Shown here in pieces: positions 2,799-45,745 of a stretch of 64,000 nucleotides of DNA. The notes under the pieces were generated by a model. It ran no database searches. It saw nothing but the letters and a program-made list of their open reading frames with translations, and was not told where the DNA came from. This DNA comes from an uncultured Acidobacteriota bacterium (lineage in GTDB: Bacteria; Acidobacteriota; Thermoanaerobaculia; Multivoradales; UBA5704), in contig CAVYRF010000001.1 of the NCBI GenBank assembly GCA_963770895.1, positions 1,184,001-1,248,000 of the forward strand, given 5' to 3'. A program made the translations under genes and the position numbers. Within the stretch, counting starts at the first letter, position 1, and every line of letters begins with the position of its first letter.

Positions 2799-3685
2799 TC
2801 ATCCGCCCCTCCCCAGACTGCCAGGAGGGCGAGCACACGCCGGCGCCTCTCGCCGGCACCGCACGAGTGAGAACCCCGCCTTCACGCCAGGTCGGTTCGC
2901 CGCGTCGCCCCGATCGCGAAGCGCCTGGCGGCGCGTGCGCAATCGGGGCCGGGGCGACAATACTTCATGCCACTTCCTCAATTCCGGCACATCCAAGTAA
3001 CCCCAAGACATATCGCCAAACCGCAGCTCTCGTAGGTTATTCCTCGGAAGCCGTACAACATGACTGAGGGGTCCTGCTTGTCGCGGCAAGTGATGGTACA
3101 CCTCATAAGCCAGGATGTCGGCCGCCTGTAGCGCCACGAACTCCCGCTCGTTCTCAAATCGCAGAGAAAGGAGGCGGAGGTTGTTCTTTTGTAAGGGGTC
3201 TTGCTCGTTTTCCTGAAACAGCTTCAGGCTGACGCCAGCGCCGCTTGCTCCACTTTCAAAAGTATATGCAATTTGAGCGGCTGGCGCCTTTGCCCTAACA
3301 AGCTTGGCCGCGTCCATAAAGCAGGCCATGGCGGCCAGCCGTACGCGCCCCCAGTGAGCTGTTTCGCTCCCTCAGAGAAAATCGAGTCAAATTCTTTTTT
3401 GGGAACCGCAATGCCAACGCTGCCAAGCGTGTGCCTCTTAACGATGTCAACTAGCCTGGAGTATCTAGCGCGCCTTTCATTGTGAGTCCAGGATTTATAT
3501 GGCTCAACCCGAGTGGAGCAAAAATCCACCATGTGAAACATGTCAAGCCCAAGCTCCGCCAGCGCGAGTTTCCACTCTGTCTCATAATCGAGCCACAACT
3601 CTTGGGTTGATATATATCCTGCCACGCTCAATACTCTTGAGCGTTGATGTGTTCCGCTCTCATCAAAATAGGCTTCAAGAATCAC
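2799..3685 (-). pseudogene. DUF3800-like (RNase H-fold) protein, split by a 1-nt frameshift near 3338
   Basis: N-part AYFDESG...FHMVDF (3685-~3338) continues in another frame as LAAMACF...YTFESG...LQAADILAY; the 3' end reads into repeat R1. The frameshift may be a sequencing error. Confidence 0.75.
2885..2956 (+). repeat. Bulged-hairpin dispersed repeat, copy R1 (3'-truncated)
   Basis: Core GCCCCGATCGCGAAGCGCC-TGGC-GGCGCGTGCGCAATCGGGGC at 2907-2949; 2885-2952 nearly identical to 4635-4702. Confidence 0.9.
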
Positions 3686-3725
3686 GAGGTATCAATCTTT
3701 CGGCCGGGGGCCGCTTGGTGCATGG

Positions 3726-3749
3726 CGGGGAGGAGCGGCCCTCCCCTAC
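3726..3749 (-). repeat. GTAG-type REP-like palindrome (single, degenerate)
   Basis: Minus strand GTAGGGGAGGGCCGCTCCTCCCCG: GTAG tetranucleotide followed by a GGGGAGG/CCTCCCC stem. Confidence 0.45.
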
Positions 3750-3815
3750 AGGAGGACCGTATAGCAGGCCGAGGCCGCGGGAGCCGCAACACAGGAAGAG
3801 AGCACTGCCCGCCGC

Positions 3816-4157
3816 TCATGCCGCTTGCAAGATGAAACTGACGCGTACGGCGTCGTAGGGAAATACGATGCGGCCGTCGCCGGTCTTCTCCAGGAGTCCG
3901 GCGGCGAGCAGTGCATGGACATCTCCGTGCACCGCCTTGACGTCCCGTCCCACACGACGGGCAGCCTCCCGTATGGAGACCTCTCCCGCGCCGGTCAGTT
4001 GCGCGAGCAGCTCCCATCGTTTCTGCGTCAGTACCTTGAACATTAGCGCCGGCGTCTCGAAGCTGATGAAGGCCCCTTGGGCCTGCCCCGCCATGGCGCG
4101 GACGAAACGGCGATCCGTCTCCACGCGCGGCGAGATCTCCAGAGTCACAGTTCGCAT
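3816..4157 (-). CDS. HTH protein, putative antitoxin (HVO_A0114-like)
   Basis: ATG at 4157, 1 nt after the upstream stop; ISFETP...LTQKRWELL...SIREAARRVGRDVKAVHGDVHALL...IVFPYD. Confidence 0.85.
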   Translation of the reverse strand: MRTVTLEISPRVETDRRFVRAMAGQAQGAFISFETPALMFKVLTQKRWELLAQLTGAGEVSIREAARRVGRDVKAVHGDVHALLAAGLLEKTGDGRIVFPYDAVRVSFILQAA

Positions 4158-4158
4158 G

Positions 4159-4440
4159 TCACGGCCTCCAGCGCTCCACGTCCCGCCAGAAGTCGGCGAG
4201 GAGCTGTTCCGGCGTGATAAAGGTGTAGGGGGTTTGCTGGTTGCCGGCATGGCGATGGTCACCCTTGCCCGCCTCGTTGTCGTACCGCAGGATACAGGTC
4301 CCGTCGACCACCAGCGCGAGTCGATACTTGAAAGGATGCGCGCTTCCCGGGACGGGCGCTGGCAGGCGCCACACGACCAGTTCCACGAAAGCATCTCCGG
4401 CAATGATCCGCCGTTCCCGGAACAGGGGATCGGCCTTCAT
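4159..4440 (-). CDS. DUF6516 (TumE-like) putative toxin
   Basis: FKYRL...LRYDNEAGKGDHRH signature; paired with the HTH gene. Confidence 0.85.
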   Translation of the reverse strand: MKADPLFRERRIIAGDAFVELVVWRLPAPVPGSAHPFKYRLALVVDGTCILRYDNEAGKGDHRHAGNQQTPYTFITPEQLLADFWRDVERWRP

Positions 4441-4477
4441 GTTGGAGAGAATACCAACACCAAAAGCGAATGTCCAC
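4441..4477 (-). promoter_or_regulatory. Probable leaderless promoter/operator of the DUF6516-HTH pair
   Basis: Minus strand TGGACA...TATTCT-ctccaac-ATG; inverted repeat GTTGG-N8-CCAAC at 4441-4458. Confidence 0.5.
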
Positions 4478-4634
4478 GGCCGCGGATCTGATCCGCGACC
4501 ATCTACGCAACTGGCGTGGCAGGCTCGGAAACCGGCGAGCCAGAATCAGAGGTAGCGGTCCGCTCCCGAGCTTCGAGGTCGCGGTCCAGGCTCGCCAGGC
4601 GATAGACGACCCAGCCCCCGACGATCGAGACGGG

Positions 4635-4724
4635 CGCCAAGTCGGTTCACCGTGTCGCCCCGATCGCGACGCGCCTGGCGGCGCGTGCGCAATCGGGGCC
4701 GGAGCGCGGGCGAGGCGTCGTGCC
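4635..4724 (+). repeat. Bulged-hairpin dispersed repeat, copy R2 (most complete)
   Basis: Core GCCCCGATCGCGACGCGCC-TGGC-GGCGCGTGCGCAATCGGGGC at 4657-4699; 5' extension shared with R1, 3' extension shared with R3/R4. Confidence 0.9.
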
Positions 4725-4815
4725 ATACATGAAGGGCTTGCGGCGAGGAGCGCCGGCCGGCCCCGCCGGACCGGAGACGCCGGCCGGCGGGGCTTGCTGC
4801 GGCCGCGGCGGCCGG

Positions 4816-6150
4816 TCAGTGGGCGCCGGTGTTCTTGACGATGCGGCCGGCCTGCATGACGAAGAAGACGTTTTCGGTGCGGCGGATGTCTTGCAGCGGA
4901 TCGCCGGCGACGGCGACCAGGTCGGCGACCTTGCCGTGCTCGATGGTGCCGATCTGGTCGGTGAGGCCGAGCAGGTCGGCGCCGCCGGCGGTGGCGGCGC
5001 GCAGGGCCTGCGCCGGCGTCATGCCGTTGCTTGCCATGAGCGCGAACTCGCGCGCGTCCAGGCCGTGCGGCTCGACGCCCGAATCGGTGCCGAACGCCAC
5101 CTTGACGCCGATCTTCATGGCGCGCCGGAACATGTCCTGCATCGCCGCGGCGGCGGCGCGCGCCTTGACGGCGATGGCCGGCGGGAACTTGTCGGCCTTT
5201 TCGCCCACCCAGTAGCCGGCGAACAGCGTCGGCACCAGGTAGACGCCCTTGTCCTTCATCTCGCGCAGCGTGTCGTCCTTGAGGAACGAGCCGTGCTCGA
5301 TCGAATCCACGCCGGCGGCGATGGCGATCTTGGCGGCGGCGTCGCCGTGGCAATGCGCCGCCACCTTGCGGTGCCACGCATGCGCCTCCGAAACAATGGC
5401 GTTCATCTCCTCCTGGGTCAGCTCCGGCACGTCGACCGGATCGGCCAGCGACAGCACGCCGCCCGACGGCATGCACTTGATCACGTCGGCGCCGTACTTG
5501 ATCTGGTAGCGCACCGCCTCGCGGCACTCCGCCGGCCCGTTGCAGACCCCCTGGATGGTGCCGGCCGGCTTGACGCGGTCGGGAGGAAACGGCGACTGGT
5601 CGGCATGGCCGCCGGTCGAGCCGATGCCGTAGTTCGCCACCAGCATGCGCGGCCCCTCCGCCACACCGGCGTTGATCGCATTGCGCAACCCGACGGCCAG
5701 AAAATCCTGCGAGCCCAGGTCGCGCACCGTGGTGAATCCCGCCTCCAGCGTCAGCCGCGCATAGTGGGCCGCATAGTGCGCCTGCTCGGCCGGGAACCGC
5801 ATCACCCCGGTAAAAAAGTCCTTGTACCAGTCGTCGCCCGCCTCGTGCGCCATGTGCACGTGCGCGTCGATGAAGCCGGGCAGCAGCGTCGCATCACCCA
5901 GGTCGATCACCCGAGCCCCCGGCGGCACCGGCAGGTTGGCGCCCACCTGGGTGATCCGCTCCCCCTCCACCACCACCATGCCCGGCGCCACCACCTGGTC
6001 GGACGTCGCGGCGAACACCCGCGCCGCCTTGATCACCACCACCGCCGGCGCCGCCGCGGACTGCGCCGCCGCCGCCGCCCCCAGCGCGCCCCCAGCCGGA
6101 AGCCCTGCCGCCACCGCCAGCATCACCACCAGCAACCCAAGCTTTTTCAT
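4816..6150 (-). CDS. Secreted metal-dependent amidohydrolase (Xaa-Pro dipeptidase-like)
   Basis: Signal peptide; LLPGFIDAHVH, GFTTVRDLG, VAAHCHG, SIEHG, FGTDSG, GKVADLVAV; GGAGAA RBS. Confidence 0.93.
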   Translation of the reverse strand: MKKLGLLVVMLAVAAGLPAGGALGAAAAAQSAAAPAVVVIKAARVFAATSDQVVAPGMVVVEGERITQVGANLPVPPGARVIDLGDATLLPGFIDAHVHMAHEAGDDWYKDFFTGVMRFPAEQAHYAAHYARLTLEAGFTTVRDLGSQDFLAVGLRNAINAGVAEGPRMLVANYGIGSTGGHADQSPFPPDRVKPAGTIQGVCNGPAECREAVRYQIKYGADVIKCMPSGGVLSLADPVDVPELTQEEMNAIVSEAHAWHRKVAAHCHGDAAAKIAIAAGVDSIEHGSFLKDDTLREMKDKGVYLVPTLFAGYWVGEKADKFPPAIAVKARAAAAAMQDMFRRAMKIGVKVAFGTDSGVEPHGLDAREFALMASNGMTPAQALRAATAGGADLLGLTDQIGTIEHGKVADLVAVAGDPLQDIRRTENVFFVMQAGRIVKNTGAH

Positions 6151-6367
6151 CCTGAATTCTCCTTACCGGTTTCCGTCCAGGGTAGCACCGCAGGGGCGGC
6201 GGAGGGCGGCCTCTACGGCCTCGCCGGGGGGCGGCGGCGCTTTTGAAGTGACGCATCGGGACCGACAAGTGACGCTAGATCGGAACGCCTCGCCGCGGTG
6301 AGGTCTTGCGCCTGTTGGTATATTTTCCGCCGGTTACCTCAAGTACCTGACAACTCAGCAGTCACCG

Positions 6368-28477
<22,110 letters not shown>

Positions 28478-28568
28478 CCCCCGCGGCAGGCGGTGGCGGT
28501 GCGGTTCCCGTCCCCCAGCCCGTCTCCCAGCCCGGCCCGCCGCACAGGCCGGCCGGGCGCCGGCGCGC

Positions 28569-29972: not shown

Positions 29973-30220
29973 GCCCGTGCTCCTTTTTTCGAGATGCTAA
30001 ATTGAGCTTAGGGGATCTAGCTCTGGCGGTCAATCGCCAGGACTTCAGGCGCCTGCGCCTGGCTGCGCCGTGCCCGGCGGGCCTGCTCAGGGTGGGGGCG
30101 TGAATGCGTAGAGGCCCTGGCCCGCGGTGCCCAGCGCCTGCGGCGCCGGCGTCGCCGCATCCGCGGTCTGCTAAGCTTCGCTCGATGCTCGATCTCCCGC
30201 CTGCCTGACCGGCACCCACG

Positions 30221-31180: not shown

Positions 31181-31252
31181 ATCGCGGATCATCCGGCGCG
31201 CACCAGGGTGGCCGCGGCCGGGGCTTGGTGGGCGGAGCGGAAGGTGGTGCGC

Positions 31253-32953
31253 CTAGAGGGCCGGGTGGCTGGCGGGCAGGACGTCCCAGGCGGCGCGCTC
31301 CTGGGCGTCCAGCTGATGTTGACGGAAGTGCTGGCGGACGGCGATTTGTGTGCCCAGCTCGAGCAGCTGGTCGCCGTCGGCGGTGTAGGCGGGCCAGGCG
31401 GGCAGGCTGGGACCGGCGGGCTGGCCGGTCTTGGCGAACTGAACCCACAGATTGTGCACCAGGCGGGTCATGGCGCGGTCTTCGGCGGGCAGCATGGCGG
31501 CCAGCGGCGACAGCTTGTCCCAGGTGTTGAAGACGTAGGGCAGCTCGGAACCGTGCGAGGCGCCCATCACCTTGCCGCGTTGATGCACGCGCACGTAGGA
31601 AAAGTAGTAGAGCCAGGCGGGCGCGCCTTGCGCCGCGGCGGTGCGGGCGAACCAGCGCTCGGGGGCGACAAAGTAGTGATCGCCGAAGATGGCGGCGCCC
31701 AGGGTCTTGTCGTTCGTGGTGTCGGTGCCGGTGGCGGTGTAGGCGGCGCGCACGGTGGGCCGGGCGTAGGGCAGCGCCGCCGCCGGGTCGGGCAGCAGCG
31801 AGGCCTCGAAGCTGTTGCAGCCCAGGATCAGCGGCACGCGCAGGGCGTGGCCGCCGGCAAACGCCTGGGCGATGCCTTCCTTGAGCAGGCGGCCGTCGAT
31901 GACCGGCCCGACGTTTTCGGCCGGCACCGCGACCAGCGCTTCGGCAGGCAGGGCGCGCAGGACGTCGGCGTCGACCCCGCCGGCCTTGACCACGCCGGCG
32001 GCCCACCTGGTGACGGCTTCGGACTGCACGCGGGTGGCGGCGGCGACGGTGCGCTCGCCGGCGGCTTCGGCTTCGTTCATCGTCGGCAGCGGCTCCCAGC
32101 CGCCGCCCGGCGATTCGGCGATGGCTTGCGCGAACAGGCCGCGCGCCGCGGGCGTCGACATCAGCGCCAGCAGGTCGCCGCCGCCGGCCGATTCGCCGAA
32201 CACGGTCACCCGCCTGGGGTCGCCGCCAAACGCGGCGATGTTGCGCGCCACCCAGCCCAGCCCGGCGATCTGGTCGAGCAGGCCGAAGTTGGCGACCGGT
32301 TCGCCGGCCGGCGCCGCGCGCGACAGCACGGCGTGGGTGAAGAAGCCGAAGTGCCCCAGGCGGTAGTTGAGCGCCACCAGGATCACCCCGTCCTGCGCGA
32401 AGGCGGCGCCGTCGTACAGCACCCGCGACCCGGCGCCGATGACGTTGGCGCCGCCGTGCAGCCAGACCATCACCGGCGCGCCGTGCGCCCCCTTGGGCGC
32501 GAACACCTGCAGCGTCAGGCAGTCTTCGCTCACCGGGGTGCCGGCCGGCACGAACGATTCGACCGCCGGATTGGGCCGCTGCATGCACGTGGCGCCGGGC
32601 GCCGCCGCGCTGCGCTCGCCCTGCCAGGGCAGCGGCGGCTGCGGTGGCCGCCAGCGCCGCGGGCCGACCGGCGGCGCCGCGTACGGGACGCCCTGAAACA
32701 CCAGCACGCCGTCGCGTTCGATCCCCGCCAGCACTCCGGATTCGACTCGCACGCGCGGCGGGGCCGCCACCTCGCCACCGGCGCTCACGCCACCGCTCCC
32801 CGCGGCACCGCTCGCCGCTGCGCCGCCGGCCGCCGCGCCTGCCGCGGCGCCGGGCTGCTGGCCGCGCGCCGCGGTGCCCAGCGCCAGCACAGCCGCCGCC
32901 AGCAGCGGCAGACACCAGGCTGAGATCACGATCGATTTGGCGTTTTTCCTCAT
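31253..32953 (-). CDS. Secreted type-B carboxylesterase
   Basis: Start MRKNAKS (ATG 32953) plus signal peptide; SEDCLTL, WLHGG, FGESAGG, GASHGSEL. Confidence 0.93.
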   Translation of the reverse strand: MRKNAKSIVISAWCLPLLAAAVLALGTAARGQQPGAAAGAAAGGAAASGAAGSGGVSAGGEVAAPPRVRVESGVLAGIERDGVLVFQGVPYAAPPVGPRRWRPPQPPLPWQGERSAAAPGATCMQRPNPAVESFVPAGTPVSEDCLTLQVFAPKGAHGAPVMVWLHGGANVIGAGSRVLYDGAAFAQDGVILVALNYRLGHFGFFTHAVLSRAAPAGEPVANFGLLDQIAGLGWVARNIAAFGGDPRRVTVFGESAGGGDLLALMSTPAARGLFAQAIAESPGGGWEPLPTMNEAEAAGERTVAAATRVQSEAVTRWAAGVVKAGGVDADVLRALPAEALVAVPAENVGPVIDGRLLKEGIAQAFAGGHALRVPLILGCNSFEASLLPDPAAALPYARPTVRAAYTATGTDTTNDKTLGAAIFGDHYFVAPERWFARTAAAQGAPAWLYYFSYVRVHQRGKVMGASHGSELPYVFNTWDKLSPLAAMLPAEDRAMTRLVHNLWVQFAKTGQPAGPSLPAWPAYTADGDQLLELGTQIAVRQHFRQHQLDAQERAAWDVLPASHPAL

Positions 32954-33149
32954 CGGTTCCAGAGCATAGCAGGCAGCCGTGCCAGGCCGAGGGCGGTGGT
33001 TGTGGGGGCGCCGCTTGTGGCGCGGAGCAGAGGCGGCTTGTGCGTGGGCTGAGCTTGCAGCGCGGCGCTGGGGAGGTCGCCGCGCGGGCCTTGACGGTGC
33101 TCGCGACGGTGTGGTCTGCTCCGTGGTGGAGGCGCCGGCGCGCCTCCTC

Positions 33150-33185
33150 AAATCCCGGTCCCCACGGACCGGGATTTTGTTTTTG
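33150..33185 (+). terminator. Intrinsic terminator hairpin lying upstream of the hydrolase gene
   Basis: AAATCCCGGTCC-CCAC-GGACCGGGATTT, perfect 12-bp stem followed by TGTTTTT. Confidence 0.75.
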
Positions 33186-33226
33186 GCCCAGGCGCACCCG
33201 AGGAACGTGAAGGAGGAGGCATGGCG

Positions 33227-34045
33227 ATGAGCGAGGCAGCCCCCCGTCACCCGATCACCACCCGGCCGCTGGTCTACGCCCACCCCGGCGCGGACGGCCT
33301 GCCCGTCCGCCGCGACGTCGAATATCGCACCGGCGACGGTGGCGCGCTGACGTTCGATCTGTATTACCCGCGGGAGCCTGCCGGCGCCGCGCCGTTCCCG
33401 GCGCTGGTGTTCGCCAACGGCTTTCCCGACCCCGGATGCCAGCGCCACCTGGGCTGCCGGCAGAAAGAGATGCAGTGCTACGTCGATTGGGCGCGGCTGG
33501 CCGCCGCCGCTGGAGTGGCGGCCGTGCTGTACGCGAACCGCGAGCCGGTGGCGGATGCGCGCGCGGTGCTCGACCACCTGGGCCGCCACGCGGAGGCCCT
33601 GGGAATCGATGCCGGCCGCATCGGCATCTGGGCTTGCTCCGGCCACGGACCGCTGGCACTGTCGCTGCTGATGGACGGCGCCCGCCAGCCGCCGCCGCGC
33701 TGTGCGGCGCTGTTCTACCCGATGCTGCTGGATCTGGACGGCACCACGGCCATCGCCGACGCCGCCGGGCGCTTCGGCTTTGCCAATCCCGCCGCCGGGC
33801 GCTCGCCGGACGAACTGCCCTCGGCGCTGCCGCTGTGGGTCGCCCGCGCCGGCCAGGATGAAAACCCCGGCCTGAACGAGGCGCTCGACCGCTTTGCCGC
33901 CCAGGCGCTGGCGCGCAACCTGCCGCTGACCCTGGTCAACCTGCCCGCGGCGCCCCACGCCTTCGACCTGCTGGACGCCAGCGACGCTTCCCGCCACGCG
34001 GTGACCCAGGCGCTGGCCTTCCTGCGCCACCACCTGGGCGTGTGA
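33227..34045 (+). CDS. Alpha/beta hydrolase family protein
   Basis: AGGAGGAGG RBS; FDLYYP, RIGIWACSGHG nucleophile elbow, RAGQD, PHAFD. Confidence 0.85.
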   Translation: MSEAAPRHPITTRPLVYAHPGADGLPVRRDVEYRTGDGGALTFDLYYPREPAGAAPFPALVFANGFPDPGCQRHLGCRQKEMQCYVDWARLAAAAGVAAVLYANREPVADARAVLDHLGRHAEALGIDAGRIGIWACSGHGPLALSLLMDGARQPPPRCAALFYPMLLDLDGTTAIADAAGRFGFANPAAGRSPDELPSALPLWVARAGQDENPGLNEALDRFAAQALARNLPLTLVNLPAAPHAFDLLDASDASRHAVTQALAFLRHHLGV

Positions 34046-34079
34046 GCCGCACGGCTGGCCCGCCCCCGGCGCCGAGGCG

Positions 34080-34415
34080 CTAGGGAGGCGACAGGCACTC
34101 GCAGAGCGGCACCGCAATCGCCGCACAGGTGCTGATCATCTGGCACAACTTCGGCGAGCCGACGCCGCAGCGCGAATTGAGCGTCTTGCCGGCACAGTCG
34201 GCGTCGCTGCAAGCGCCGCACGTCGTCGTCAAGGCGATGGCGCCCTGCTGTCCAGCCGGCGGCGGCAACCACAGCGGCGTGGTGCTCAGCGAGCAGGAGC
34301 CGGACGACAGCAGGGTGGCGGGACCGGCGAGCTCCGCGCCCACCGCACGCCCCGGCAACCAGGCGCCAGCGGCAAGCAGCAGCGCGACGGCCAACGCAAG
34401 CTTTGCAGGCCTCAT
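34080..34415 (-). CDS. Small secreted Cys-rich protein (111 aa, 8 Cys in the C-terminal 46 aa)
   Basis: AAAGGAGG RBS before ATG 34415; signal peptide; TCGACSDADC...C...C...C...CEC. Confidence 0.8.
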   Translation of the reverse strand: MRPAKLALAVALLLAAGAWLPGRAVGAELAGPATLLSSGSCSLSTTPLWLPPPAGQQGAIALTTTCGACSDADCAGKTLNSRCGVGSPKLCQMISTCAAIAVPLCECLSPP

Positions 34416-34618
34416 GACGTTGCCTCCTTTCCTCTGCTTATCGTAAGTGCGAAAGGCCGCTCGAAGCGTGGCCGCCGCGCCTCGGCGCGCCCAGCCGCAC
34501 CGGCGGTCTGCCGGCGGCCACCGCATGCGGCCGGGCCGCTGCGCCTGCGTCGCTTCGCGGTACGATGCGTCACCACACAGCTGCGGGCTCCCGGCCACGC
34601 TGGGACGGAGGATTGCGC

Positions 34619-36907
34619 ATGCACAGGTGGCCGGATCGGCGTCAGCCGCGGCGGACCGCGGGTTTCGGACCGGTGAGCTGCTGGTTGCTGTGGTTCGCCG
34701 CGGGCGGTCTGCTGCTGCCGGCCGCGGCGCGCGCCCAGGCGACGGAACCGCCGCCGCCGCTGCTGCCGGAAGCGACGGTGCGCGCCCTCGCCGCCGAGCT
34801 GTCGGGGACGACGGCAAAGCACACCGTGCAGGACCTCACGCTTCACCACAGGATGCGCGGCTCCCGCGGCTTCAAGGCTGCCTCGGACTACGTCGCGGCG
34901 CTGGCGCGCTCGTATGGGCTCGCGGTCGAGGTGATCAGCCTGCCCGCCGACGGCAGCGTCATGTACGGCACGCAGCGCTCGCGCCCAGCCTGGGACGCCG
35001 ACTTTGCCGAGCTCTGGGAACAGCGCCAGCAGGGTGGTGACAGCGCCGCCGGCGGCAGTGCAACCAGCGGCGGTGTCGGCAGCGGCGGCGGCATCTGGAC
35101 GGATGCGCAGCGCATCGCCTCCTGGGACGCGCGTCCCATCACGCTGGCGGAAGACAGCGCCGCGGGCGAGGTCGCGGCGGCGCTGGTGGACATCGGCCAG
35201 GGCACCGCGGGCAGCGACTACCGCGGCAAGGACGTCCGCGGCAAGCTGGTCCTGGCCGGCGCCCAGCCGGGGCCGGTCGCGGCCCTGGCCGTCGATCGCT
35301 TCGGCGCCGCCGGCATCATCTCCTACGCGCAAAATCAGCCCACCGCCTGGTCGCAGGAAGACGAAAACCTGGTGCGCTGGGGTCACCTGGCCACCTTCCC
35401 GCCGCCGCACACCTTCGCCTTCATGGTCTCGCTCAAGCAGGCCCGTGCCTGGCAGGCACGCCTGGCCGCCGGCGGCACCGTGCGCCTGCGGGCCAAGGTC
35501 CAGGCCGGCCAGCATCCCGGCAGCTACGACATCGTGACCGCCGTCATCCCCGGCGCCGACCCGGCGCTGGCCGGCGACCAGATCGTCCTGTCGTGCCATC
35601 TAGACCACCAGCGCCCCGGCGCCAACGACAACGCCAGCGGCTGCGCCACCATCCTGGAAGTGGCCCGCACCCTCTCGAAGCTGGTGCGCGAAGGCCGCCT
35701 GGCGCCGCCGCGCCGCACCCTGCGCTTCGTCTGGCCGCCGGAAGTGGAAGGCACCGTCGCGCTGCTCAACGCCCGCCCGGACCTGGCCCGCCAGGCGCGC
35801 GCCGTCATCCACATGGACATGGTGGGAGGCGCCGCCGCCGCCACCGGCGCCATCTTCCACGTCACCCGCAGCCCCAAGAGCCTCCCCACCTTCGTCAACG
35901 ACGTCGGCGAAGCCTTCGGCCGCTTCGCCAGCGAGCAGTCCGACGCCTTCGCCAGCACCGGCGCCGCCGACTTCCCGCTGGTCGACCCCGAGGGCTCCAA
36001 ATACGCCCTGCAAGCCGCGGTGGTCGACTTCACCCCCGGCAGCGACCACGAAGTCTGGTCCGAAGGCTCCTTCCGCGTCCCCGCCATCTACCTCAACGAC
36101 TGGCCCGATCGCACCATCCACACCGGCGCCGACACCCTCGCCAACATCGACGCCACCAAGCTCCTCCGCGCCGCCTTCATCGGCGCCGCCAGCGCCTACT
36201 ACCTGGCCCAGCTCGACACCGCCCAAACCCCCGCCCTCTGGGACACCATCCGCCGCCACGCCCTGGAGCGCCTCGCCACCGCCCTCGCCCGCGCCGAGCG
36301 CCTGCGCGCCGGCGCCAACCCAGCCGCCGCGCCGGCTGCTGCCGTCTCAGGAGCCGCCGCAGGCGACGCCGGTTCGGGCACCAGGACCGCGGACGCCGCC
36401 GCCAAGGCCGCCGACGCCGACGCGGCCGCGCTCCTGCGCTTCCATCTGGCCTACGAATCGGGTGTGATCGAATCGATGAGCACCTTCGCCGCCCTGCCGC
36501 CGGCCACCCGTCAGGCCGCAACGGACTTCCTGCGCGCCCTGGAACGCCTGAGCGGCCTGCCCCCGGCGCCATCCAGTGCCGCCCCGCCCGCGCTCCCCGG
36601 TGCCGCGGACGCCGGCGCCCTGATCCTCCGCCGCAACCCCGATCCCAAAGGCCCCATGACCGGCTTCGGCTACAGCTACCTGGAAGACCACGCCGCCCAG
36701 CAGCACCTGCCCACCCCAGCCCTGGTCGATCGCCGAGGGCTGTGGGGCTCCGACTACGCCTACGAAGCCCTCAACCTGGTCGACGGCCGCCGCACCGTAA
36801 GCCAGATCCGCGACGCCCTCACCGCCATCTACGGCCCCGTCCCCCTCCCCGAAGTCGCCGCCTACCTCGACACCCTCCGCCGCATCGGCGTCCTCGCCAC
36901 CCCCTGA
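34619..36907 (+). CDS. Secreted M28-family/DUF4910-like aminopeptidase with PA domain
   Basis: GGAGGA RBS; CHLDH, GANDNASG, PPEVEG, HMDMVG, GSDH, IHT. Confidence 0.88.
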   Translation: MHRWPDRRQPRRTAGFGPVSCWLLWFAAGGLLLPAAARAQATEPPPPLLPEATVRALAAELSGTTAKHTVQDLTLHHRMRGSRGFKAASDYVAALARSYGLAVEVISLPADGSVMYGTQRSRPAWDADFAELWEQRQQGGDSAAGGSATSGGVGSGGGIWTDAQRIASWDARPITLAEDSAAGEVAAALVDIGQGTAGSDYRGKDVRGKLVLAGAQPGPVAALAVDRFGAAGIISYAQNQPTAWSQEDENLVRWGHLATFPPPHTFAFMVSLKQARAWQARLAAGGTVRLRAKVQAGQHPGSYDIVTAVIPGADPALAGDQIVLSCHLDHQRPGANDNASGCATILEVARTLSKLVREGRLAPPRRTLRFVWPPEVEGTVALLNARPDLARQARAVIHMDMVGGAAAATGAIFHVTRSPKSLPTFVNDVGEAFGRFASEQSDAFASTGAADFPLVDPEGSKYALQAAVVDFTPGSDHEVWSEGSFRVPAIYLNDWPDRTIHTGADTLANIDATKLLRAAFIGAASAYYLAQLDTAQTPALWDTIRRHALERLATALARAERLRAGANPAAAPAAAVSGAAAGDAGSGTRTADAAAKAADADAAALLRFHLAYESGVIESMSTFAALPPATRQAATDFLRALERLSGLPPAPSSAAPPALPGAADAGALILRRNPDPKGPMTGFGYSYLEDHAAQQHLPTPALVDRRGLWGSDYAYEALNLVDGRRTVSQIRDALTAIYGPVPLPEVAAYLDTLRRIGVLATP

Positions 36908-36918
36908 ACCGTCCCCCT

Positions 36919-37272
36919 TCAGACCGCTTCGCCGGCATCGCTGAGCGGGGATTCCACCTCCGCGACAAGCCGCGGGAGATGACCCTCGGCCACGCCCCAT
37001 ACCGCGGCGTCGTCGATCGCGTCGTAGCCGTGAATGATGCGGTTGCGAAAACTGACGATACGACGCAGGTCGGTGATCCTCGACGCTACGTCGGAATCGG
37101 TTTGGGCGAGGCGCCCAAGTGCTTCGCCGATGAGCTCAAACTCCCGCTCGACAGCGCGGCGGAACAGGCGGTCCTCGCTATAGGCCGCAAAGTTGCGGGT
37201 GCTGCACCATTGGCGAATGCTGCGACCCGACGCGAGGATGTCAAACAGCAGTTTCTTCGCGCGGTTGTCCAT
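36919..37272 (-). CDS. hepT: HEPN (DUF86) RNase toxin
   Basis: AVEREFELIGEA and RNRIIHGY (RxxxxHxY). Confidence 0.88.
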   Translation of the reverse strand: MDNRAKKLLFDILASGRSIRQWCSTRNFAAYSEDRLFRRAVEREFELIGEALGRLAQTDSDVASRITDLRRIVSFRNRIIHGYDAIDDAAVWGVAEGHLPRLVAEVESPLSDAGEAV

Positions 37273-37570
37273 ACACGAGCTCGCGGGTGGCCTGGATCTC
37301 GCGGCGGAGGTACGGATTGCGCATCGCCTGGTCGGTTAGCAGATCGATTGGGCGGGCAAAGAGCCGCTCCAGGCTATCGGCAAAGTCGAGATATCTCTGG
37401 GCGTAAGCCCCTGTCGGTTGGCGATCGGCCATCTCGACCAGAAAATCGAGATCGCTGCCTGGTTGGAACTGCTCCGAAACGGCCGATCCGAACAAATACA
37501 GTCGCTGGACGCCGTAGCGCCGGCACAGCTCAGAAAGGTCGGTCAGGTGCTCCTCCACAAGTGCGATCAC
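37241..37570 (-). CDS. mntA: Minimal nucleotidyltransferase antitoxin
   Basis: LYLFGSAV...SDLDFLV (GSx10DxD); overlaps hepT. Confidence 0.88.
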   Translation of the reverse strand: MIALVEEHLTDLSELCRRYGVQRLYLFGSAVSEQFQPGSDLDFLVEMADRQPTGAYAQRYLDFADSLERLFARPIDLLTDQAMRNPYLRREIQATRELVYGQPREETAV

Positions 37571-37680
37571 GAAACCGATCGTACCATCGCACCCAAGCGG
37601 GGCCAGCCGCGCCTCCGTCCACCTTCGCGCTTCACTAGTCCGAGCGGGCGGCAGTCAGACGAGGCGCTCCTGGTTGAAGG

Positions 37681-38960
37681 TCAGGGCAGGGTGATGAGCC
37701 GGGCGTAGACCGTGGTGGCGGTGCCGCTCAGCCAGACGGCGACGGCGGTGCCCTTGGGGCCGGCGGCGAGGGCGGGGAGCTCTGGTTGCCGGCGGTGGTG
37801 ACGGTGACGAGAAAATCGCCGCCGGTGGGGGCGCCGTCGGCGCTCAGGAGGCGGCCGAAGATGCCGGTGCCGTCGCCGTCCTGGCCCGATTCGTCCTCCC
37901 AGATCGTGACGTAGCCGCCGGCGGGTTGCCAGACGATCTTGGGTGTCGTGCGTTGGCCGGGTACGCGGCGGTTGACTTGGAACTCGTCCGCTTCCTGAGC
38001 GGTGCCGTCGGCGTCGAAGAGGAGACCGTGGATGGGGCCGGGCGGCTTGGGCCCCAGCGGCGGCAGCCAGGGGAAAGCGGGGAACTGCTCATCCCAGACG
38101 ATGGCGAAGCTGCCGTCTGGTTTCATGGCCAGTGAAGCGTCGTAGCTGCTCTCATCGTCGGGAAAGAGCGGGTCGATCGGCAGGGCCTTGCCGCTCTGCG
38201 ACACGCGCACGGCATAGACGCTGATGTCGTCGCCGTAGTAGGTCAGCGCCGCCGTGAGGGACCCGTCAGGCGCCATGGCGATGGCGTCTGGGAAGGGACC
38301 CGAGCCGTCCACGTAGGAACCCATGCTCAGCAGCACCTCGCCGGTCAAGGGCGCGAGCTGGGCGGAGAAGACGCGCGCCTCGGCATTGTTGTAGTAGCCG
38401 AAGGTCTGCTGGTAACCGACATCGGCGGCCCAGGCGACGACCACCTGGCCCTCCGGGGTCGCGCTCACCACCCCGAAATAGCGGTTGAAGGGGCTCGGCA
38501 GGTGGGCCAGCTCGGCGTGGGTCAACGGCGACCCGTTGCGCCGGAACATCTGCACCTCCACCTGCTTGATGACGATGACGCCGCGGCCCGCGGGTCTGCG
38601 GTAGCTGTCCCATACCGCCGTGAAGGTGTCGTTGCTGGTCGCCACCAGGCCGTCCAGCGCGATGACGTTGGCGGACGGCACCAGCAGGAACTCGCCGCTC
38701 GCCGGCGCACCGTCAGCAGTAAACAGGCGAGCGTGCACGCCGACCGGGTGGGCTGTGCTCGGACTCCCCATCGGCTGCGCCGCCCACGCCACGATGAACC
38801 CGCCGTCGGGGAACACCGCGACCTGCGGCGTCATCTGGGCGTCCAAGGTGCTGACGTTGACCTGGATCTCCGGCCCCAGAACCGGCGCGGCCGCAGCCAT
38901 CCCTGGCAACAGAAAAGCGGCCAGCAAGGCCCAGGGTGAAAGGCGGTTCGGAATCCCCAT
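37681..38960 (-). CDS. Secreted protein with xQVN-type repeats; 1-nt frameshift near 37775
   Basis: Signal peptide; repeats EIQVN, EFQVN, DFLVT...GNQ; last repeat continues as PALAAGPKGTAVAVW...YARLITLP* (stop 37681) in another frame. Confidence 0.7.
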
Positions 38961-39048
38961 GAGCGATACCCCCTAGAGCGTTCCGCGGGGGCGAGCGAAA
39001 GGCCACGCCGCCAGTTTCAACTATAACGTGGAAGGCCGCGAGCCACTC

Positions 39049-39099
39049 GGGTTGACACCTTACCCATGCGCGTGCGATTCTTGGGTTAAATGTCTACCC
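39049..39099 (+). promoter_or_regulatory. Two GGGT-N9-ACCC palindromes (putative PadR operators) over the -35 box and the start codon
   Basis: 39049-39065 contains TTGACA; 39083-39099 contains ATG 39090. Confidence 0.65.
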
Positions 39100-39446
39100 G
39101 AGAAGGAAAAGAACGACTCGAGCTGTTGCAGGGCACCCTCGACCTGCTGATCCTGCGCACGCTGATCTTTGGACCGCAGCACGGGCAAGGGATCGCGCGC
39201 GCCATTCAAGACACCTCCCAAAGCGAGCTGCTCGTCGCGCACGGCGCGCTCTACCCAGCGCTCCAGCGCCTCGAAGAGAGACGCTGGATCTCCGCCCGCT
39301 GGGGCACCTCCGACAGCAACCGCAAGGCGCGCTTCTACACCTTGACCGCGGCCGGCCGGACACAGCTGGTCGTCGAGACCAGCAAATGGCAACGGCTGAC
39401 CAGAGCGATCGCGCTCGTCCTGGGGCCGGAGGCGCCGGAAAGGTAA
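39090..39446 (+). CDS. PadR-family regulator, acidobacterial type
   Basis: [40 protein letters not shown]. Confidence 0.92.
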
Positions 39447-39524
39447 CGCCCGTGCTCCACCGCAGGCGGCAGCTCGAAGAGCCGCTCGCGCCTCCTGCAG
39501 GAACCTGGCATCGTCAGGTGGCTT

Positions 39525-39645
39525 ACGCCTGGACTACGACCGCGGCGGCGCAGAGCCGCCTGGATGCGCTCGTCGTCGCCCTGCCGCAGCAATTCCCCGG
39601 CGACACTCCGCGCACCAGCGACTGGACGGTGCGCCTGACGCCTGC
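39525..39645 (+). pseudogene. Short relic of an ADOP/MacB-like ABC permease
   Basis: TTAAAQSRLDALVVALPQQFPGDTPRTSDWTVRLTP resembles an ADOP periplasmic segment; no start codon; sits where PadR partners normally lie. Confidence 0.55.
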
Positions 39646-39673
39646 TGGCGCCTGCTGCCGCGCGCGGGAGCGC

Positions 39674-40621
39674 CTACACCAGTCCGGACACCTTCTCGAG
39701 GTCGATGTTGCCGCCCGACACCAGCGCGACGACCCGCTCGCCAGGGGAGACGCGGACCTTGCCGGCGAGGAGCGCCCCGGTGGCCGCGGCGCCGGAGGCC
39801 TCGACATAGAGCTTGGCCCGCGTCAGCAGCAGGCGCATCCCCTCCATGATCTCGGCCTCGGTGACGGTCACGATGTCGTCCACCGCCTCGCGGGCGATGG
39901 CCAGGGGCAGGGCGCCGACGAAAGGAGGCGTCATGCCGTCGGCCAGGGTCGCCGGCCGCGTCACCGGCACCGGCTTGCCGGCGGCCAGCGCCGGGCCCAG
40001 ACCGGGGCCGGCCTCCAGCTCGACGGCGACCACGCGAGTCCGCGGTCGGCTCCCCTTGATGGCGGAGGTCACGCCGCCCAGCAGGCCGCCCCCGCCCACC
40101 GGCACCACCACCAGGTCGACGTCCGGCAGGTCCTCCAGGATCTCCAGGCCGGCCGTCCCCGAGCCGGCCAGCAGGACCGGATCGTCGAAAGGGTGGACGA
40201 AGGTCAGGCCGCGCGCCTCCCGCACCTCGTTCAGCTTGTCGAACAGTGTCGGCCGGTCGGGATGGAGCACGATCTCGGCGCCGTAGCCGCGCACCGCATC
40301 GATCTTCGACTGCGGCGCATCGGTCGGCATCACCACCACCGCCGAGCACCCCGCGACCCGCGCCGCCCAGGCAACGGCGGCAGCGTGGTTTCCGGCCGAA
40401 ACCGTGACCAGGCCGCGCCCGCGCTCGTCGCCGGACAGCGACAGGACCCGGTTCAGCGCGCCCCGCGCCTTGAAAGACCCGGTCTTCTGAAAGCTCTCGC
40501 ACTTGAGATACAGCCGCACCCCCACCCGCTCCCCCAGCTGCAGGCTGGAAAACAGAGGCGTGTGATGGATCGATCCAGCAATGCGGCTCGCCGCCGCCCG
40601 AATCTCGCTCAGGGGAATCAT
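39674..40621 (-). CDS. PLP-dependent threonine/serine dehydratase family
   Basis: KCESFQKTGSFKARGA, SAGNH, VPVGGGGL, SGGN. Confidence 0.93.
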   Translation of the reverse strand: MIPLSEIRAAASRIAGSIHHTPLFSSLQLGERVGVRLYLKCESFQKTGSFKARGALNRVLSLSGDERGRGLVTVSAGNHAAAVAWAARVAGCSAVVVMPTDAPQSKIDAVRGYGAEIVLHPDRPTLFDKLNEVREARGLTFVHPFDDPVLLAGSGTAGLEILEDLPDVDLVVVPVGGGGLLGGVTSAIKGSRPRTRVVAVELEAGPGLGPALAAGKPVPVTRPATLADGMTPPFVGALPLAIAREAVDDIVTVTEAEIMEGMRLLLTRAKLYVEASGAAATGALLAGKVRVSPGERVVALVSGGNIDLEKVSGLV

Positions 40622-40755
40622 GCCGCGGATTCTAAAGGACCTCCACCGCCAAAAACACCACGCACCACCCGGAGCCGCGGAAGTCGCGCCCGCCCCCCGC
40701 TCCAGCTTTACCGGTGCAAGCCCCCTTGAGGATCTGTTCTGCTGCGGGCAGGCTG

Positions 40756-40776
40756 GTCTATACTCATGGTATAGAC
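40756..40776 (+). promoter_or_regulatory. Palindromic operator of vapBC-1
   Basis: GTCTATAC-TCATG-GTATAGAC, perfect 8-bp inverted repeat just upstream of the RBS. Confidence 0.75.
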
Positions 40777-40793
40777 GTCAAGAAAGGAGGCTC

Positions 40794-41048
40794 ATGACCA
40801 CCACCGCAAAGTTGTTCAAGAACGGGCGCAGTCAGGCCATCCGCCTACCGCGTGAGTTCAGGTTCGAAGGAGACCGGGTACGAGTACGCCGCGCCGGGCG
40901 CGGCGTACTCGTCGAGCCGATCTTCAAGGACGTAGAAAAGTGGTTCGCGGAACTGGATGGCATGGCCGCCGAACCTTTCATGTCCGACGGACGGCGGCAG
41001 CCAACTTCTCCTCGGCGCGACGTTTTCCATGACGACGTACCTGCTTGA
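40794..41048 (+). CDS. vapB: AbrB/VagC-type antitoxin
   Basis: AAGGAGG RBS; AKLFKNGRSQAIRLPREFRF. Confidence 0.92.
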   Translation: MTTTAKLFKNGRSQAIRLPREFRFEGDRVRVRRAGRGVLVEPIFKDVEKWFAELDGMAAEPFMSDGRRQPTSPRRDVFHDDVPA

Positions 41049-41451
41049 TACGAACGCGTGCATCGCGCTGATCAACGGCACCGAGGCCAACGTCCGACGG
41101 CGATTTAGGCGCGTGGTGGCTCGGGAGAGCGTTGTCCTTCTGTCGTCGATCGTGGCCTTTGAGCTGTGGTATGGAGTCGCGAAGAGCCAGCGCAAGGATC
41201 AAAACCGGAAGCGACTCGCAGCATTCCTCGCCGGCCCGTTCGAGTGGACGATGTTCGACGATGATGACGCGGAAGCTGCTGGAATCGTTCGCGCAGAGCT
41301 CGAAGCCGCAGGAACACCGATCGGCGCCTATGACGTCCTCGTCGCGGGACAGGCCCGGCGACGTCGCGCGACCCTCGTGACCTCCAACGCGAAGGAGTTC
41401 ACGCGAGTGCGTGGTCTGAAGTGGGAGGACTGGGCCGATTCAAGTCGGTAG
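41029..41451 (+). CDS. vapC: PIN-domain toxin
   Basis: YLLDTNACI, FELWYG, PIGAYDVLVAGQA, LVTSNAKEF. Confidence 0.93.
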   Translation: MTTYLLDTNACIALINGTEANVRRRFRRVVARESVVLLSSIVAFELWYGVAKSQRKDQNRKRLAAFLAGPFEWTMFDDDDAEAAGIVRAELEAAGTPIGAYDVLVAGQARRRRATLVTSNAKEFTRVRGLKWEDWADSSR

Positions 41452-41504
41452 CACGCCTCGATGAGCCTGAATTCGGACCGCGTCGTGTTCGGGCAGGGCT
41501 GATT

Positions 41505-41579
41505 GCCCCGACCGCGACGCGCCCTGCGGCGCGTGCGCGATCGCGGCTGGGGCGCGAGTGCGGTGTCCTGCCGCGCCGG
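41505..41579 (+). repeat. Bulged-hairpin dispersed repeat, copy R3
   Basis: GCCCCGACCGCGACGCGCC-CTGC-GGCGCGTGCGCGATCGCGGC plus 3' extension to ...TGCCGCGCCGG. Confidence 0.9.
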
Positions 41580-41670
41580 AACGCTGGTGCGTCCGCCCGA
41601 GGTGCTGGCGCGGTTGCGGGAGGCGCTGGACGGCGGATGCTGCTCAAGGCGCACCCTGAGCGCCAGGTCC

Positions 41671-41715
41671 CATCACGCATTGCCATCTGGTGCGAACTTT
41701 CCTATCATCACGCAT
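41671..41715 (+). promoter_or_regulatory. Sigma70-type leaderless promoter of vapBC-2 with direct-repeat operator
   Basis: TTGCCA(41680)-17 bp-TATCAT(41703), ATG 8 nt later; CATCACGCAT at 41671 and 41706. Confidence 0.7.
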
Positions 41716-41716
41716 C

Positions 41717-41971
41717 ATGCGAACAACCGTCGACATCGTCGATCCGGTCCTGGTGGAGGTACGGCGCGAGCAGGAGCGGCAAGGCAAGACCCTGGGCGAG
41801 GTGGTGTCGGAGCTTCTGGCCGAGGGGCTGGCGGCCCGCAGCCAGCGCAGCCAGGCCGCGCCCCCGCAGACGTTGCAGTGGGTTGCCAAGGATCTGAGGT
41901 GCCGGATCGACCTGCGCGACAAGGAAGCGCTGTGGACTCTGCTCGACCATGAGGCGCTTCACGAGCCGTGA
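41717..41971 (+). CDS. vapB: RHH-type antitoxin
   Basis: MRTTVDIVDPVL...GKTLGEVVSELL...IDLRDKEAL; GTGA overlap with the toxin. Confidence 0.85.
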   Translation: MRTTVDIVDPVLVEVRREQERQGKTLGEVVSELLAEGLAARSQRSQAAPPQTLQWVAKDLRCRIDLRDKEALWTLLDHEALHEP

Positions 41972-42405
41972 GCTTCAGCGTCGATGTCAATGTGCTGATC
42001 TACGCCTCCGACAAAGGCAGCCCTCATCATGCGACCGCCCTCGCCTTCCTTGAGGAGCGGACCGCCGGGCGCGAGATCTTCTGCATCGCCTGGATGACCG
42101 CCATGTCGTATCTCCGGATCGTCACCCACCCGGGCGTCCTGGGCTCGCCTCTCCATCCCGAAGAGGCGCTCGCGAACCTCCGTACCCTCGCCAGACTGCC
42201 GCACGTGCACATGCTTTCCGAGGAGAAGGGTTTCCTGGATGCCTACAGCGAGGTCACGGGCGGCGAGCCGCTACGCGGCAGGCTCGTACCGGACGCCCAC
42301 CTCGCCGCCATCCTCCTGCAGCACGACGTGCGCAGGCTCTACACGAACGACTCCGATTTCCGCCGCTTCTCCTTCCTCGACGTCCAGAACCCCTTCGCAG
42401 CCTGA
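41968..42405 (+). CDS. vapC: PIN-domain toxin (mycobacterial-type VapC)
   Basis: VDVNVLIYA, YLRIVTHP, VPDAHLAA, TNDSDFRRF. Confidence 0.92.
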   Translation: MSFSVDVNVLIYASDKGSPHHATALAFLEERTAGREIFCIAWMTAMSYLRIVTHPGVLGSPLHPEEALANLRTLARLPHVHMLSEEKGFLDAYSEVTGGEPLRGRLVPDAHLAAILLQHDVRRLYTNDSDFRRFSFLDVQNPFAA

Positions 42406-42453
42406 CCCGTTACCACTCAGCCGTCTGCCGCGCAACGCCGCTTTCACGTTGAC

Positions 42454-42528
42454 GCCCCGACCGCGACGCGCCTTGCGGCGCGTGCGCGATCGCGGCCGGG
42501 GGGCGAGTGCAGTGTCTTGCCGCACCGG
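42454..42528 (+). repeat. Bulged-hairpin dispersed repeat, copy R4
   Basis: GCCCCGACCGCGACGCGCC-TTGC-GGCGCGTGCGCGATCGCGGC plus 3' extension; nearly identical to R3. Confidence 0.9.
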
Positions 42529-42736
42529 GAGGCTGGCTGGCGGTCGGCGTCACGCCGATCCAAGGATGGCGCCGTTGCGCGACACCACTACCTAAAGGGC
42601 TTTCAGTTGCGGCGATCCGCGTTGGCAAGTCGCTTTGCTGCAGCCTTTCCCGGCCCGAGCGCAGTCGCGCCGCCAGGCGCCGCGCCCAGTCGTCGTTTTG
42701 AGCGATCATTTCTAGCCGGCAAGCGGCAATCAGCGA

Positions 42737-42994: not shown

Positions 42995-43022
42995 CCATCG
43001 TCTCCCAGGTTGCAGCGGCGGT

Positions 43023-44873: not shown

Positions 44874-44993
44874 CGCAGCCTCCTCTTCTCGGGTTGCTCG
44901 CTGCCGCACCATAGCGGGCAACTGCCGCCCGGCGCAAGCCGGCCCGTCCCCCTGGCTGCAAGCGGTGACGGGCCGGCGGGGGAGGGTGCCCGC

Positions 44994-45716: not shown

Positions 45717-45745
45717 TGACGATCTCCTCGATGTTGGTGTGGCGG

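Follow-up and report, generated by a model that had tools for sequence, protein, structure and literature searches.

It has long been an open question how chromosomal toxin–antitoxin (TA) operons reach unrelated sites when no ends of a mobile element can be recognised around them. The question is raised again by a stretch of 64,000 nucleotides (nt) from an uncultured Acidobacteriota bacterium (assembly GCA_963770895.1, contig CAVYRF010000001.1, positions 1,184,001 to 1,248,000), in which TA genes lie between copies of a bulged hairpin repeat. We refer to this whole stretch as the window (G000:C1:1184001-1248000, G000 being the genome and C1 the contig). An original prediction, made from the letters of the window, held that four copies of the repeat, arranged in two same-orientation pairs, might be the sites of a gene-capture system whose enzyme is encoded elsewhere. 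In the genome, which comprises 8.16 Mb with 71% GC in three contigs, we find a family of such units that resembles repetitive extragenic palindromes (REPs) and is quantitatively tied to TA operons; at one junction, foreign low-GC DNA is joined inside a unit. The question is whether the units capture TA genes, share permissive sites with them, or recombine in such a way that TA genes are retained between them.

Results

Five copies of the hairpin unit in the window

A degenerate pattern of the repeat matched the window with 0 mismatches at 2907, 4657, 41505 and 42454, all on the + strand. None of 100 shuffled sequences gave any match. The cores of these four copies, R1 to R4, are separated by 1750 bp (R1/R2) and 949 bp (R3/R4), as originally reported, and each copy has the shape ascribed to it, an imperfect stem of 18–19 bp with a 4-nt loop and one bulged base. 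The whole unit, which had been estimated at 70–90 bp, measured ~85 nt. The statement that no copy was seen in other intergenic regions needs one correction: a fifth copy, degenerate and inverted, is located at ~42623-42700 (−). The units in the window are:

2879..2958, + strand: R1, a 3′-truncated unit (hairpin 2907-2949, then a G-run)
4636..4755, + strand: R2, a complete subfamily-A unit (hairpin 4657-4699, G-run, long tail)
41499..41595, + strand: R3, a complete unit (hairpin 41505-41547; tail variant in common with R4 only)
42448..42545, + strand: R4, a complete unit (hairpin 42454-42496)
42623..42700, − strand: degenerate inverted copy, outer 5′ arm lost

R1 starts with a ~28-nt 5′ extension that it has in common with R2 and with a unit on contig C2 (C2:1524649), and its tail is replaced by low-GC cargo from 2959 onward. 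R4 and the inverted copy form a tail-to-tail doublet, 173 bp from start to start, of which three similar examples occur elsewhere in the genome.

A family of about 64 units with a compensated stem

The genome-wide scan suggested alongside the original prediction placed the four copies in a family of about 64 units. When up to three mismatches were allowed, the degenerate pattern occurred 14 times in the genome and its reversed control 0 times. An iterated nhmmer profile converged at 64 copies, 62 of them with E<1e-4, and a covariance model built on 60 of the 64 units (the other four are truncated or weak) recovered 61 copies in G000. The consensus unit of ~85 nt starts with GGTTG, continues through the bulged 18–19 bp hairpin and a G-run, and ends in a tail that closes with GCGTCTTGCC. 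There are at least two subfamilies, which differ by a compensated A-T to G-C change in the stem and by the identity of the bulged base; R1–R4 belong to the minor one.

The fold is borne out by the alignment. Across the 18-pair stem, 90.6% of cells are paired, compared to 26–43% when the partner strand is slid. The covariation that had been called for as a check is present, with seven stem pairs changing on both sides, and none of 500 shuffles reached the observed values. A C.A mismatch (alignment columns 15/45, + strand) is kept in 40 of the 60 units and becomes a G.T wobble on the − strand, and the stem has one bulged base per arm. The − strand folds better, with z values of −2.3 to −3.1, compared to −0.7 to −2.5 for the + strand. 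Past the stem, one strand continues with a G-run and the opposite one with AACC. There is no T-run after the stem, a terminator scan of 40500-43100 returned 0 sites, and a search of the window against Rfam gave 0 matches at the gathering score and one chance-level match otherwise (E 0.18).

Two further candidate features were rejected. A second hairpin in the tail was discarded because its pairs are inconsistent between subfamilies. The sequence TTGCC, present at both ends of the unit, was considered as a possible target-site duplication of a miniature inverted-repeat transposable element; by inspection, it does not co-vary within copies (for example, R2, R3, R4 and C2:1299648).

Units bracket TA genes across the genome

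The association with TA genes that was suspected from the window is non-random across the whole genome. The flanking genes were surveyed against Pfam using 154 of 178 candidate open reading frames (ORFs); the other 24 were long or belonged to second neighbours. In 12 of the 39 repeat-bearing regions, units adjoined or enclosed a TA or defence family. The families represented are PIN with RHH or MazE, PemK with RHH, TumE with HVO_A0114, HigB with HTH, Gp49-like, PhdYefM, AbiEi, and AAA_21, alone or with DUF4276. A TA type is putative for two more regions (an MqsA-like HTH, and DUF433 with DUF5615), and the remaining repeat-bearing regions border ordinary genes, including those for PdxJ, SOD, ParC, TsaD and a CLC channel.

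Among the TA families, genome-wide enrichment was counted for PIN genes, using a set of 33 that consisted of 32 found by search and the vapC-2 gene of the window, which the search had missed and which was added by hand. Seven of the 33 have a unit at a distance of no more than 700 bp (mean of 2000 permutations 0.78, maximum 5), and five are flanked by units on both sides (mean of 2000 permutations 0.011, maximum 1). The 22 inter-unit intervals, with a total length of 21.5 kb, hold 5 PIN genes compared to 0.087 expected. A stricter comparison used as its null all 600–2500 bp spans between two intergenic gaps: 5 of the 12 inter-unit intervals in this size range hold a PIN gene, versus 49 of 1743 size-matched spans (2.8%; P about 1e-5). 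Nine of the same 12 intervals carry TA or defence-type genes. We conclude that the bracketing of TA cargo is real and general.

The cargo of the window

Most of the gene content predicted for the two intervals was recovered. Between R1 and R2, TumE (PF20126, formerly a DUF) and a winged-helix gene of the HVO_A0114 family are present as expected; the DUF3800 gene named with them is represented by a frameshifted ORF pair with co-linear, sub-threshold matches only (E 0.24 and 0.026). R3 and R4 enclose a PIN gene and its upstream partner (vapBC-2), and vapBC-1 lies close to R3, with vapC-1 ending at 41451, 54 bp 5′ of the R3 core, in agreement with the prediction. The features are:

2959..4635, − strand: cargo 1, between R1 and R2; all genes on the − strand
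about 2970-3691, − strand: DUF3800-like frameshifted ORF pair (sub-threshold matches)
3816-4148, − strand: HVO_A0114 winged-helix gene (Pfam)
4159-4440, − strand: TumE, PF20126 (Pfam)
40794..41451, + strand: vapBC-1 (MazE/AbrB-type antitoxin 40794-41048; PIN toxin 41029-41451)
41680..42405, + strand: cargo 2, between R3 and R4 (vapBC-2)
41680-41708, + strand: promoter-like site of cargo 2, outside the unit
41717-41971, + strand: gene in the antitoxin position of cargo 2, no Pfam match
41968-42405, + strand: vapC-2, the PIN toxin of cargo 2

At 2960-3750, the GC content of cargo 1 is 47–57%, compared to 71% for the genome, and by composition cargo 1 is foreign DNA. Its first gene, the DUF3800-like remnant, reads into R1 without a stop codon of its own. 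The vapBC-1 operon is single-copy in G000. In three copies in relatives (G003, G002 and one of the two in G009) it is followed by a primase-like gene, and in the window (41447-41490) about 25 nt of the start of such a gene are left after vapC-1, ending ~17 nt before R3. A decayed primase-like copy with internal deletions is located elsewhere in G000 (C1:2003321-2004559). Relatives hold vapBC-1 (84–91% identity) and vapBC-2 (82%) at other places in their genomes, without units; the homologue of cargo 2 that is 82% identical is in G009 and has no flanking unit.

Same-orientation pairs often consist of sister units

According to gene calls made with a home-made codon-based caller, 63 of the 64 units are intergenic. 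Convergent gaps account for 16 of the 55 occupied gaps versus 18% of all gaps, a mild excess. About two thirds of the loci are solo units beside ordinary genes, and one unit lies where synteny breaks between parC and moaE. Units less than 3 kb apart form 22 adjacent pairs, 13 of which are co-oriented (282–2400 bp apart) and 9 opposed, and co-oriented clusters hold at most three units. Four of the opposed pairs are tail-to-tail doublets of 138–173 bp. In the three doublets in which both members could be aligned, the partners rank only 14th to 49th in likeness to each other; the doublets therefore join unlike subtypes.

A unit is most like its neighbour in 9 of 15 same-orientation pairs, compared to 1 of 10 opposite pairs. 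The greater likeness within pairs that was noticed in the window agrees with this pattern, with R3/R4 ranking 1/1 and R1/R2 1/8 among the 60 aligned units. The duplicated stretch often runs 20 to ~440 nt past the left border of the family, and its ends differ between pairs. The junction between unit and cargo is also variable: in R1 the cargo takes over past unit position ~58, and at C2:1298123 past position 34, where the copy breaks off just behind its loop and directly abuts the stop codon of a HigA-like gene. Part of the HigA-like operon recurs further on, and duplication and deletion have therefore occurred in this region. The likeness of the sisters, their variable extensions and the shape of R1/R2 speak for an origin of the pairs by duplication, and the pairs are best explained by events at the units themselves.

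On C2, unit orientation flips at the GC-skew minimum, with counts of 11+/6− ahead of it and 5+/19− beyond it (Fisher P 0.009, or 0.02 by cluster), a bias that is confounded with gene orientation. C1 has no bias (12+/10−). The cumulative GC skew is lowest at C2:1.97 Mb and climbs throughout C1, a course that suggests that C1 and C2 are pieces of one ~8.1 Mb chromosome, with C1 inverted.

Search for a mobilising enzyme

The original prediction proposed looking for an enzyme gene flanked by the repeat, of the REP-associated tyrosine transposase (RAYT), Y1 or tyrosine recombinase type. No such gene was found near any unit in G000. The one match to PF01797 in the genome is a 143-aa Y1 transposase of the IS200 type, more than 100 kb from any unit, and its gene (tnpA) is flanked by its own hairpins (two identical, 18-nt), which are unrelated to the unit. 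The tnpA locus (L015; G000 C2:1633731-1637087) is situated amid ~310-nt tandem repeats and palindromes, beside the only IS110-family gene of the genome; this single IS110 is likewise far from any unit. With the integron integrase model TIGR02249, which has a cut-off of 265 bits, the top score was 77.6 bits. Of the 24 tyrosine-recombinase matches, not one falls within 5 kb of a unit. A search for Y2/IS91 enzymes returned no match in G000, and none in control genomes either, and therefore shows little. In the ORFs between inverted units, no nuclease or recombinase family was detected, only a VapC/PIN toxin, an anti-phage AAA ATPase and one chance-level match. Large XRE-HTH proteins beside subfamily-A units were considered as a candidate enzyme and rejected, having only HTH and weak TPR matches.

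The family in other genomes, and shared hot spots

The covariance model had 0 matches in 30 relatives, 9 of them from the same genus. BLAST with a 91-nt unit gave weak partial matches in 4 of the 30 (three of the same genus and one from another family of the order). Scans with the exact pattern returned 5 stretches from 185,579 species genomes and 3 from the Joint Genome Institute (JGI) metagenomes, all of them chance matches in coding DNA, and no match in a plasmid collection. Two of the metagenome stretches are identical, covering the hairpin 5′ arm and loop (L077:3305-3333 and L078:2677-2705), and by eye belong to a carrier domain of a nonribosomal peptide synthetase (NRPS). Contigs from three soil-metagenome runs and one ‘organism A’ run, compared over 38000-46000 of the window, yielded no credible joint that skips the cassette, the pieces being short; two of these runs bridge R4 as in the window, and the sole long joint has a 22-nt side. 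Around the TA cassettes of G004 and G009, no flanking duplications beyond chance were seen.

One relative, the sister species G002, has a palindrome family of its own, with the shape of REP doublets forming hairpins (REPINs): 15 half-sites with inverted arms ~83 nt apart (for example, L081:1500-1720 and L084:1490-1610). This family is absent from G000, G001, G003 and G009. The spacer of the G002 REPIN carries the same 12-mer, GAGCGTCTTGCC, as the unit tail in G000, which hints at a shared origin or a shared recognition. Beyond the G000 units, only the G002 REPIN copies truly share it: an apparent enrichment of the 12-mer throughout the genus was rejected, since 19 of 20 sampled sites look coding, where it is read as the reverse of a GKTL Walker-A stretch.

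Two gaps could be compared between genomes. A HemN-like gene and a DUF1579 gene are separated by 38–68 nt in G003 and G009, by 169 nt with other hairpins in G001, and by 249 nt in G000, where the gap holds a unit; in G004 it is 1.2 kb long and contains a PIN and MazE pair, and in G002 it is 1.7 kb long. The gap between tRNA-Ala(GGC) and hflX has the arrangement unit–vapBC–unit in G000, the species’ own palindromes in G002 and other genes in G003. A separate element of ~165 nt (L036:6697-6868 and L036:12924-13095, G000 C2) has many matches in G003, G004 and G009 at 78–87% identity and appears, from these matches, to be dispersed genus-wide.

Other features of the window

Positions 1-2635 are the terminal part of an NRPS gene and encode methyltransferase, carrier and condensation domains. 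Directly after its stop codon and before R1 lies a member of a second repeat family (2652-2830, ~180 nt), which has at least six further copies in the genome at 87–93% identity and no Rfam match; one copy sits between the units C2:4139472 and C2:4139912. An uninterrupted ORF of 7369 aa occupies 6368-28477. A HepT-like RNase and a nucleotidyltransferase gene (36919-37570) constitute another TA-type operon, with no adjoining unit.

Discussion

Proposed recombination between portable repeats

We lean towards the view that the units are a species-specific, orphan family of the REP/BIME type (BIME, bacterial interspersed mosaic element) that acts as recombination-prone portable homology, and that the intervals bearing TA genes are preferentially kept. 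The family is filed as REP/BIME-like because its structure, its position and its doublets agree with those repeats; a GTAG tag and a RAYT are the features in which it departs from them. The gene-capture proposal survives in part. The bracketing of TA genes, the compensated stem, and the conserved mismatch and bulges all stand; fixed junctions and an enzyme gene near the units were not found, and it is unlikely that the units are precise gene-capture sites.

In the scheme that we favour, the units would instead act as fragile palindromes and would supply 80–400 nt of portable homology. Incoming DNA with a unit on it might integrate through one homologous cross-over with a resident unit, or the interval could arise by local duplication; either way, two sister units would be left in direct orientation around the cargo. 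Recombination between the direct repeats might then delete most inter-unit intervals, and those with an addictive TA module would persist, leading to the enrichment of TA genes between same-orientation pairs. Because direct repeats invite deletion, intervals that hold TA genes should outlast others. R1 and R2 fit this scheme, because a single cross-over predicts precisely such a shape, in which R1 consists of a resident 5′ part followed by foreign low-GC DNA and R2 contains the resident tail. In this case, a circle carrying the cargo and ~78 nt of a unit would have crossed over with a resident full unit. Units and TA cassettes may in addition favour the same permissive hot spots, among them gaps next to tRNA genes or between convergent genes.

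We infer the cross-over and retention steps, and several observations weigh against them or against the scheme as a whole. No circle, empty site or deletion allele was seen, and no mobilising enzyme was found for the family in G000 (no RAYT and no GTAG tag). Of the 33 PIN genes, 26 have no unit nearby, and retention therefore cannot be the whole story. In Pseudomonas, classical REPs avoid recently acquired DNA, unlike the units of G000 (PMC3390384, in part). Finally, TA neighbours were present at 0 of 8 REPIN loci in G002 (16 proteins scanned); an association with TA genes is therefore not common to all such repeats, and something particular to the G000 unit family may be at work in it.

Passive co-occurrence, dedicated capture or RNA element

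It is possible, though we consider it unlikely, that the co-occurrence is passive, with units and TA cassettes gathering independently in a few permissive gaps and the sister pairs arising by local hopping or gene conversion; the unit would then neither move the cargo nor help to keep it. Both gaps compared above hold a unit in G000, and in relatives they contain a vapBC pair, a species-specific REPIN, other hairpins or nothing; the vapBC homologues of relatives are without units. There are also precedents in Escherichia coli, where the folA-apaH gap holds either ccdO157 or a REP (PMC3184786, in part), and a REPtron locus is replaced by hicAB in 24 strains (PMC3333891, in part). However, passive gathering does not readily account for the ~15-fold enrichment of PIN genes between units, which is seen even relative to size-matched inter-gap spans, and the G002 family shares the hot spots but not the TA association. 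R1 is joined to foreign DNA inside the unit, and the C2:1298123 copy is broken just past its loop; both junctions point to events at the unit itself.

Such events might be the work of a dedicated capture or transposition system that acts on the folded hairpin in the manner of attC, IS200/IS605 or REP/RAYT, with its enzyme encoded elsewhere and each unit–cargo–unit arrangement representing an integrated cassette. We regard this as improbable. The diversity of the cargo between same-orientation pairs (RHH with PIN, MazE with PIN, TumE, HigB-like, AAA_21 with DUF4276) speaks for such a system; against it, every cargo is single-copy, the homologous vapBC cassettes of relatives have no units, and most units are solo beside housekeeping genes. 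The conserved mismatch and bulges and the compensated stem changes are in its favour, and on C2 the better-folding strand lies on the presumed lagging-strand template, the orientation flipping at the skew minimum (Fisher P 0.009); C1, with 12+/10−, has no such bias. The C2 flip and the conserved unpaired bases leave room for an enzyme that acts on single-stranded DNA (ssDNA). The operon is antisense to the unit in 5 of the 6 direct pairs that bracket TA genes. On the other hand, the junction positions vary, the duplications extend past the unit, and the R1 junction truncates a decayed gene. The units have no R″/R′ core sites, and the best integron integrase match reaches 77.6 bits versus 265. 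One IS200-type Y1 transposase is present in G000, but it has different hairpins of its own; no Y2/IS91 match was obtained (in a search that was blank in control genomes too), the single IS110 is far off, and 0 of 24 tyrosine-recombinase matches fall within 5 kb of a unit.

A related notion, that the units are the sites of a chromosome-wide, integrase-less system in which TA and defence cassettes are captured and shuffled among dispersed bulged hairpins, either by an unrecognised enzyme acting on the strand that folds on the lagging-strand template or by host recombination with the units as portable homology, strikes us as similarly doubtful. If it were true, the TA modules would guard their own cassettes against deletion, and the system would be a scattered functional analogue of the chromosomal integron, built from a REP-like repeat.

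It is highly improbable that the units are transcribed RNA elements (terminators, mRNA stabilisers or regulatory hairpins for neighbouring operons), since the mild excess at gene 3′ ends, the orientation of units between co-directional genes (23 antisense and 12 sense, so that a transcript would carry the strand with the G.U wobble) and the placement of the tail 63–132 nt upstream of a TA operon at three loci are outweighed by the missing T-run after the stem and 0 terminator sites, the lack of an Rfam match at the gathering threshold (one chance-level match otherwise), an inconsistent position relative to neighbouring genes, and a vapBC-2 promoter-like site that lies outside the unit.

A literature search, with subscription journals and supplements outside its coverage, turned up no account of direct pairs of REP-like repeats around TA cassettes. 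If the palindromes serve as landing pads and TA addiction selects the insertions, two classes of so-called selfish intergenic DNA would be linked; should the link be passive, the family would simply add to the known lineage-specific repeats of the REP-like kind.

Comparison with known systems

The pdif site is 28 bp long and consists of two 11-bp arms for XerC and XerD and a 6-nt spacer. As the part of the literature used here describes them, the pdif/Xer modules of Acinetobacter plasmids resemble the intervals of G000 in being small, in often carrying TA genes, in being bounded by short sites, and in being shuffled without a transposase of their own. The G000 units differ from pdif in their 18–19 bp stem with a loop of 3–4 nt, in being chromosomal, and in having no Xer-type architecture.

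Integron attC sites, and the cassettes of sedentary chromosomal integrons, are similar in several respects, as far as the portion of that literature drawn on here describes them: the sites are folded and co-oriented, with unpaired bases, the cassettes are small and often of the TA type, and the TA genes may stabilise the array. In contrast, the G000 unit contains neither R″ (RYYYAAC) nor R′ (GTTRRRY), only an unpaired GTTGCCC at the 5′ end that does not fit GTTRRRY. There is no variable terminal structure and no integrase, and the copies are scattered, with at most three per cluster, rather than collected in one array. Neighbouring G000 units are sister copies including their flanks, and their junctions are imprecise.

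REPINs were reportedly described in Pseudomonas fluorescens by Bertels and Rainey in 2011. Like them, the G000 units are lineage-specific, non-autonomous palindromic repeats, and the G002 family is itself REPIN-shaped. However, the G000 unit is a single hairpin with a tail, rather than two inverted REPs, and no RAYT was found.

IS200/IS605 elements have non-autonomous derivatives. The elements carry imperfect, co-oriented, subterminal hairpins at both ends, and they have a strand and replication bias (PMC3333891, in part); in G000, an orientation bias, confounded with gene orientation, is seen on C2 only. The hairpins of the resident tnpA are, however, unrelated to the unit, no element with fixed ends occurs in multiple copies, and no cargo is found twice.

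Compared to the REPs and BIMEs of E. coli, the G000 units have GGTTG 5′ of the foot instead of GTAG (or CGTC), with a C-run followed by GGCC on the other strand, and they add a G-run and a conserved tail. They form same-orientation pairs 0.3–2.4 kb apart around TA cargo, number only about 64 copies, and have no RAYT in the genome. In other respects, the agreement is close: according to Ton-Hoang et al. 2012 (PMC3333891, in part), the E. coli repeats are GC-rich, imperfect, extragenic palindromes of 30–45 nt that occur in several subtypes and retain a conserved stem mismatch, different subtypes are joined across a linker into inverted doublets, and the loci alternate with TA genes between strains or species, all of which have their likeness in G000.

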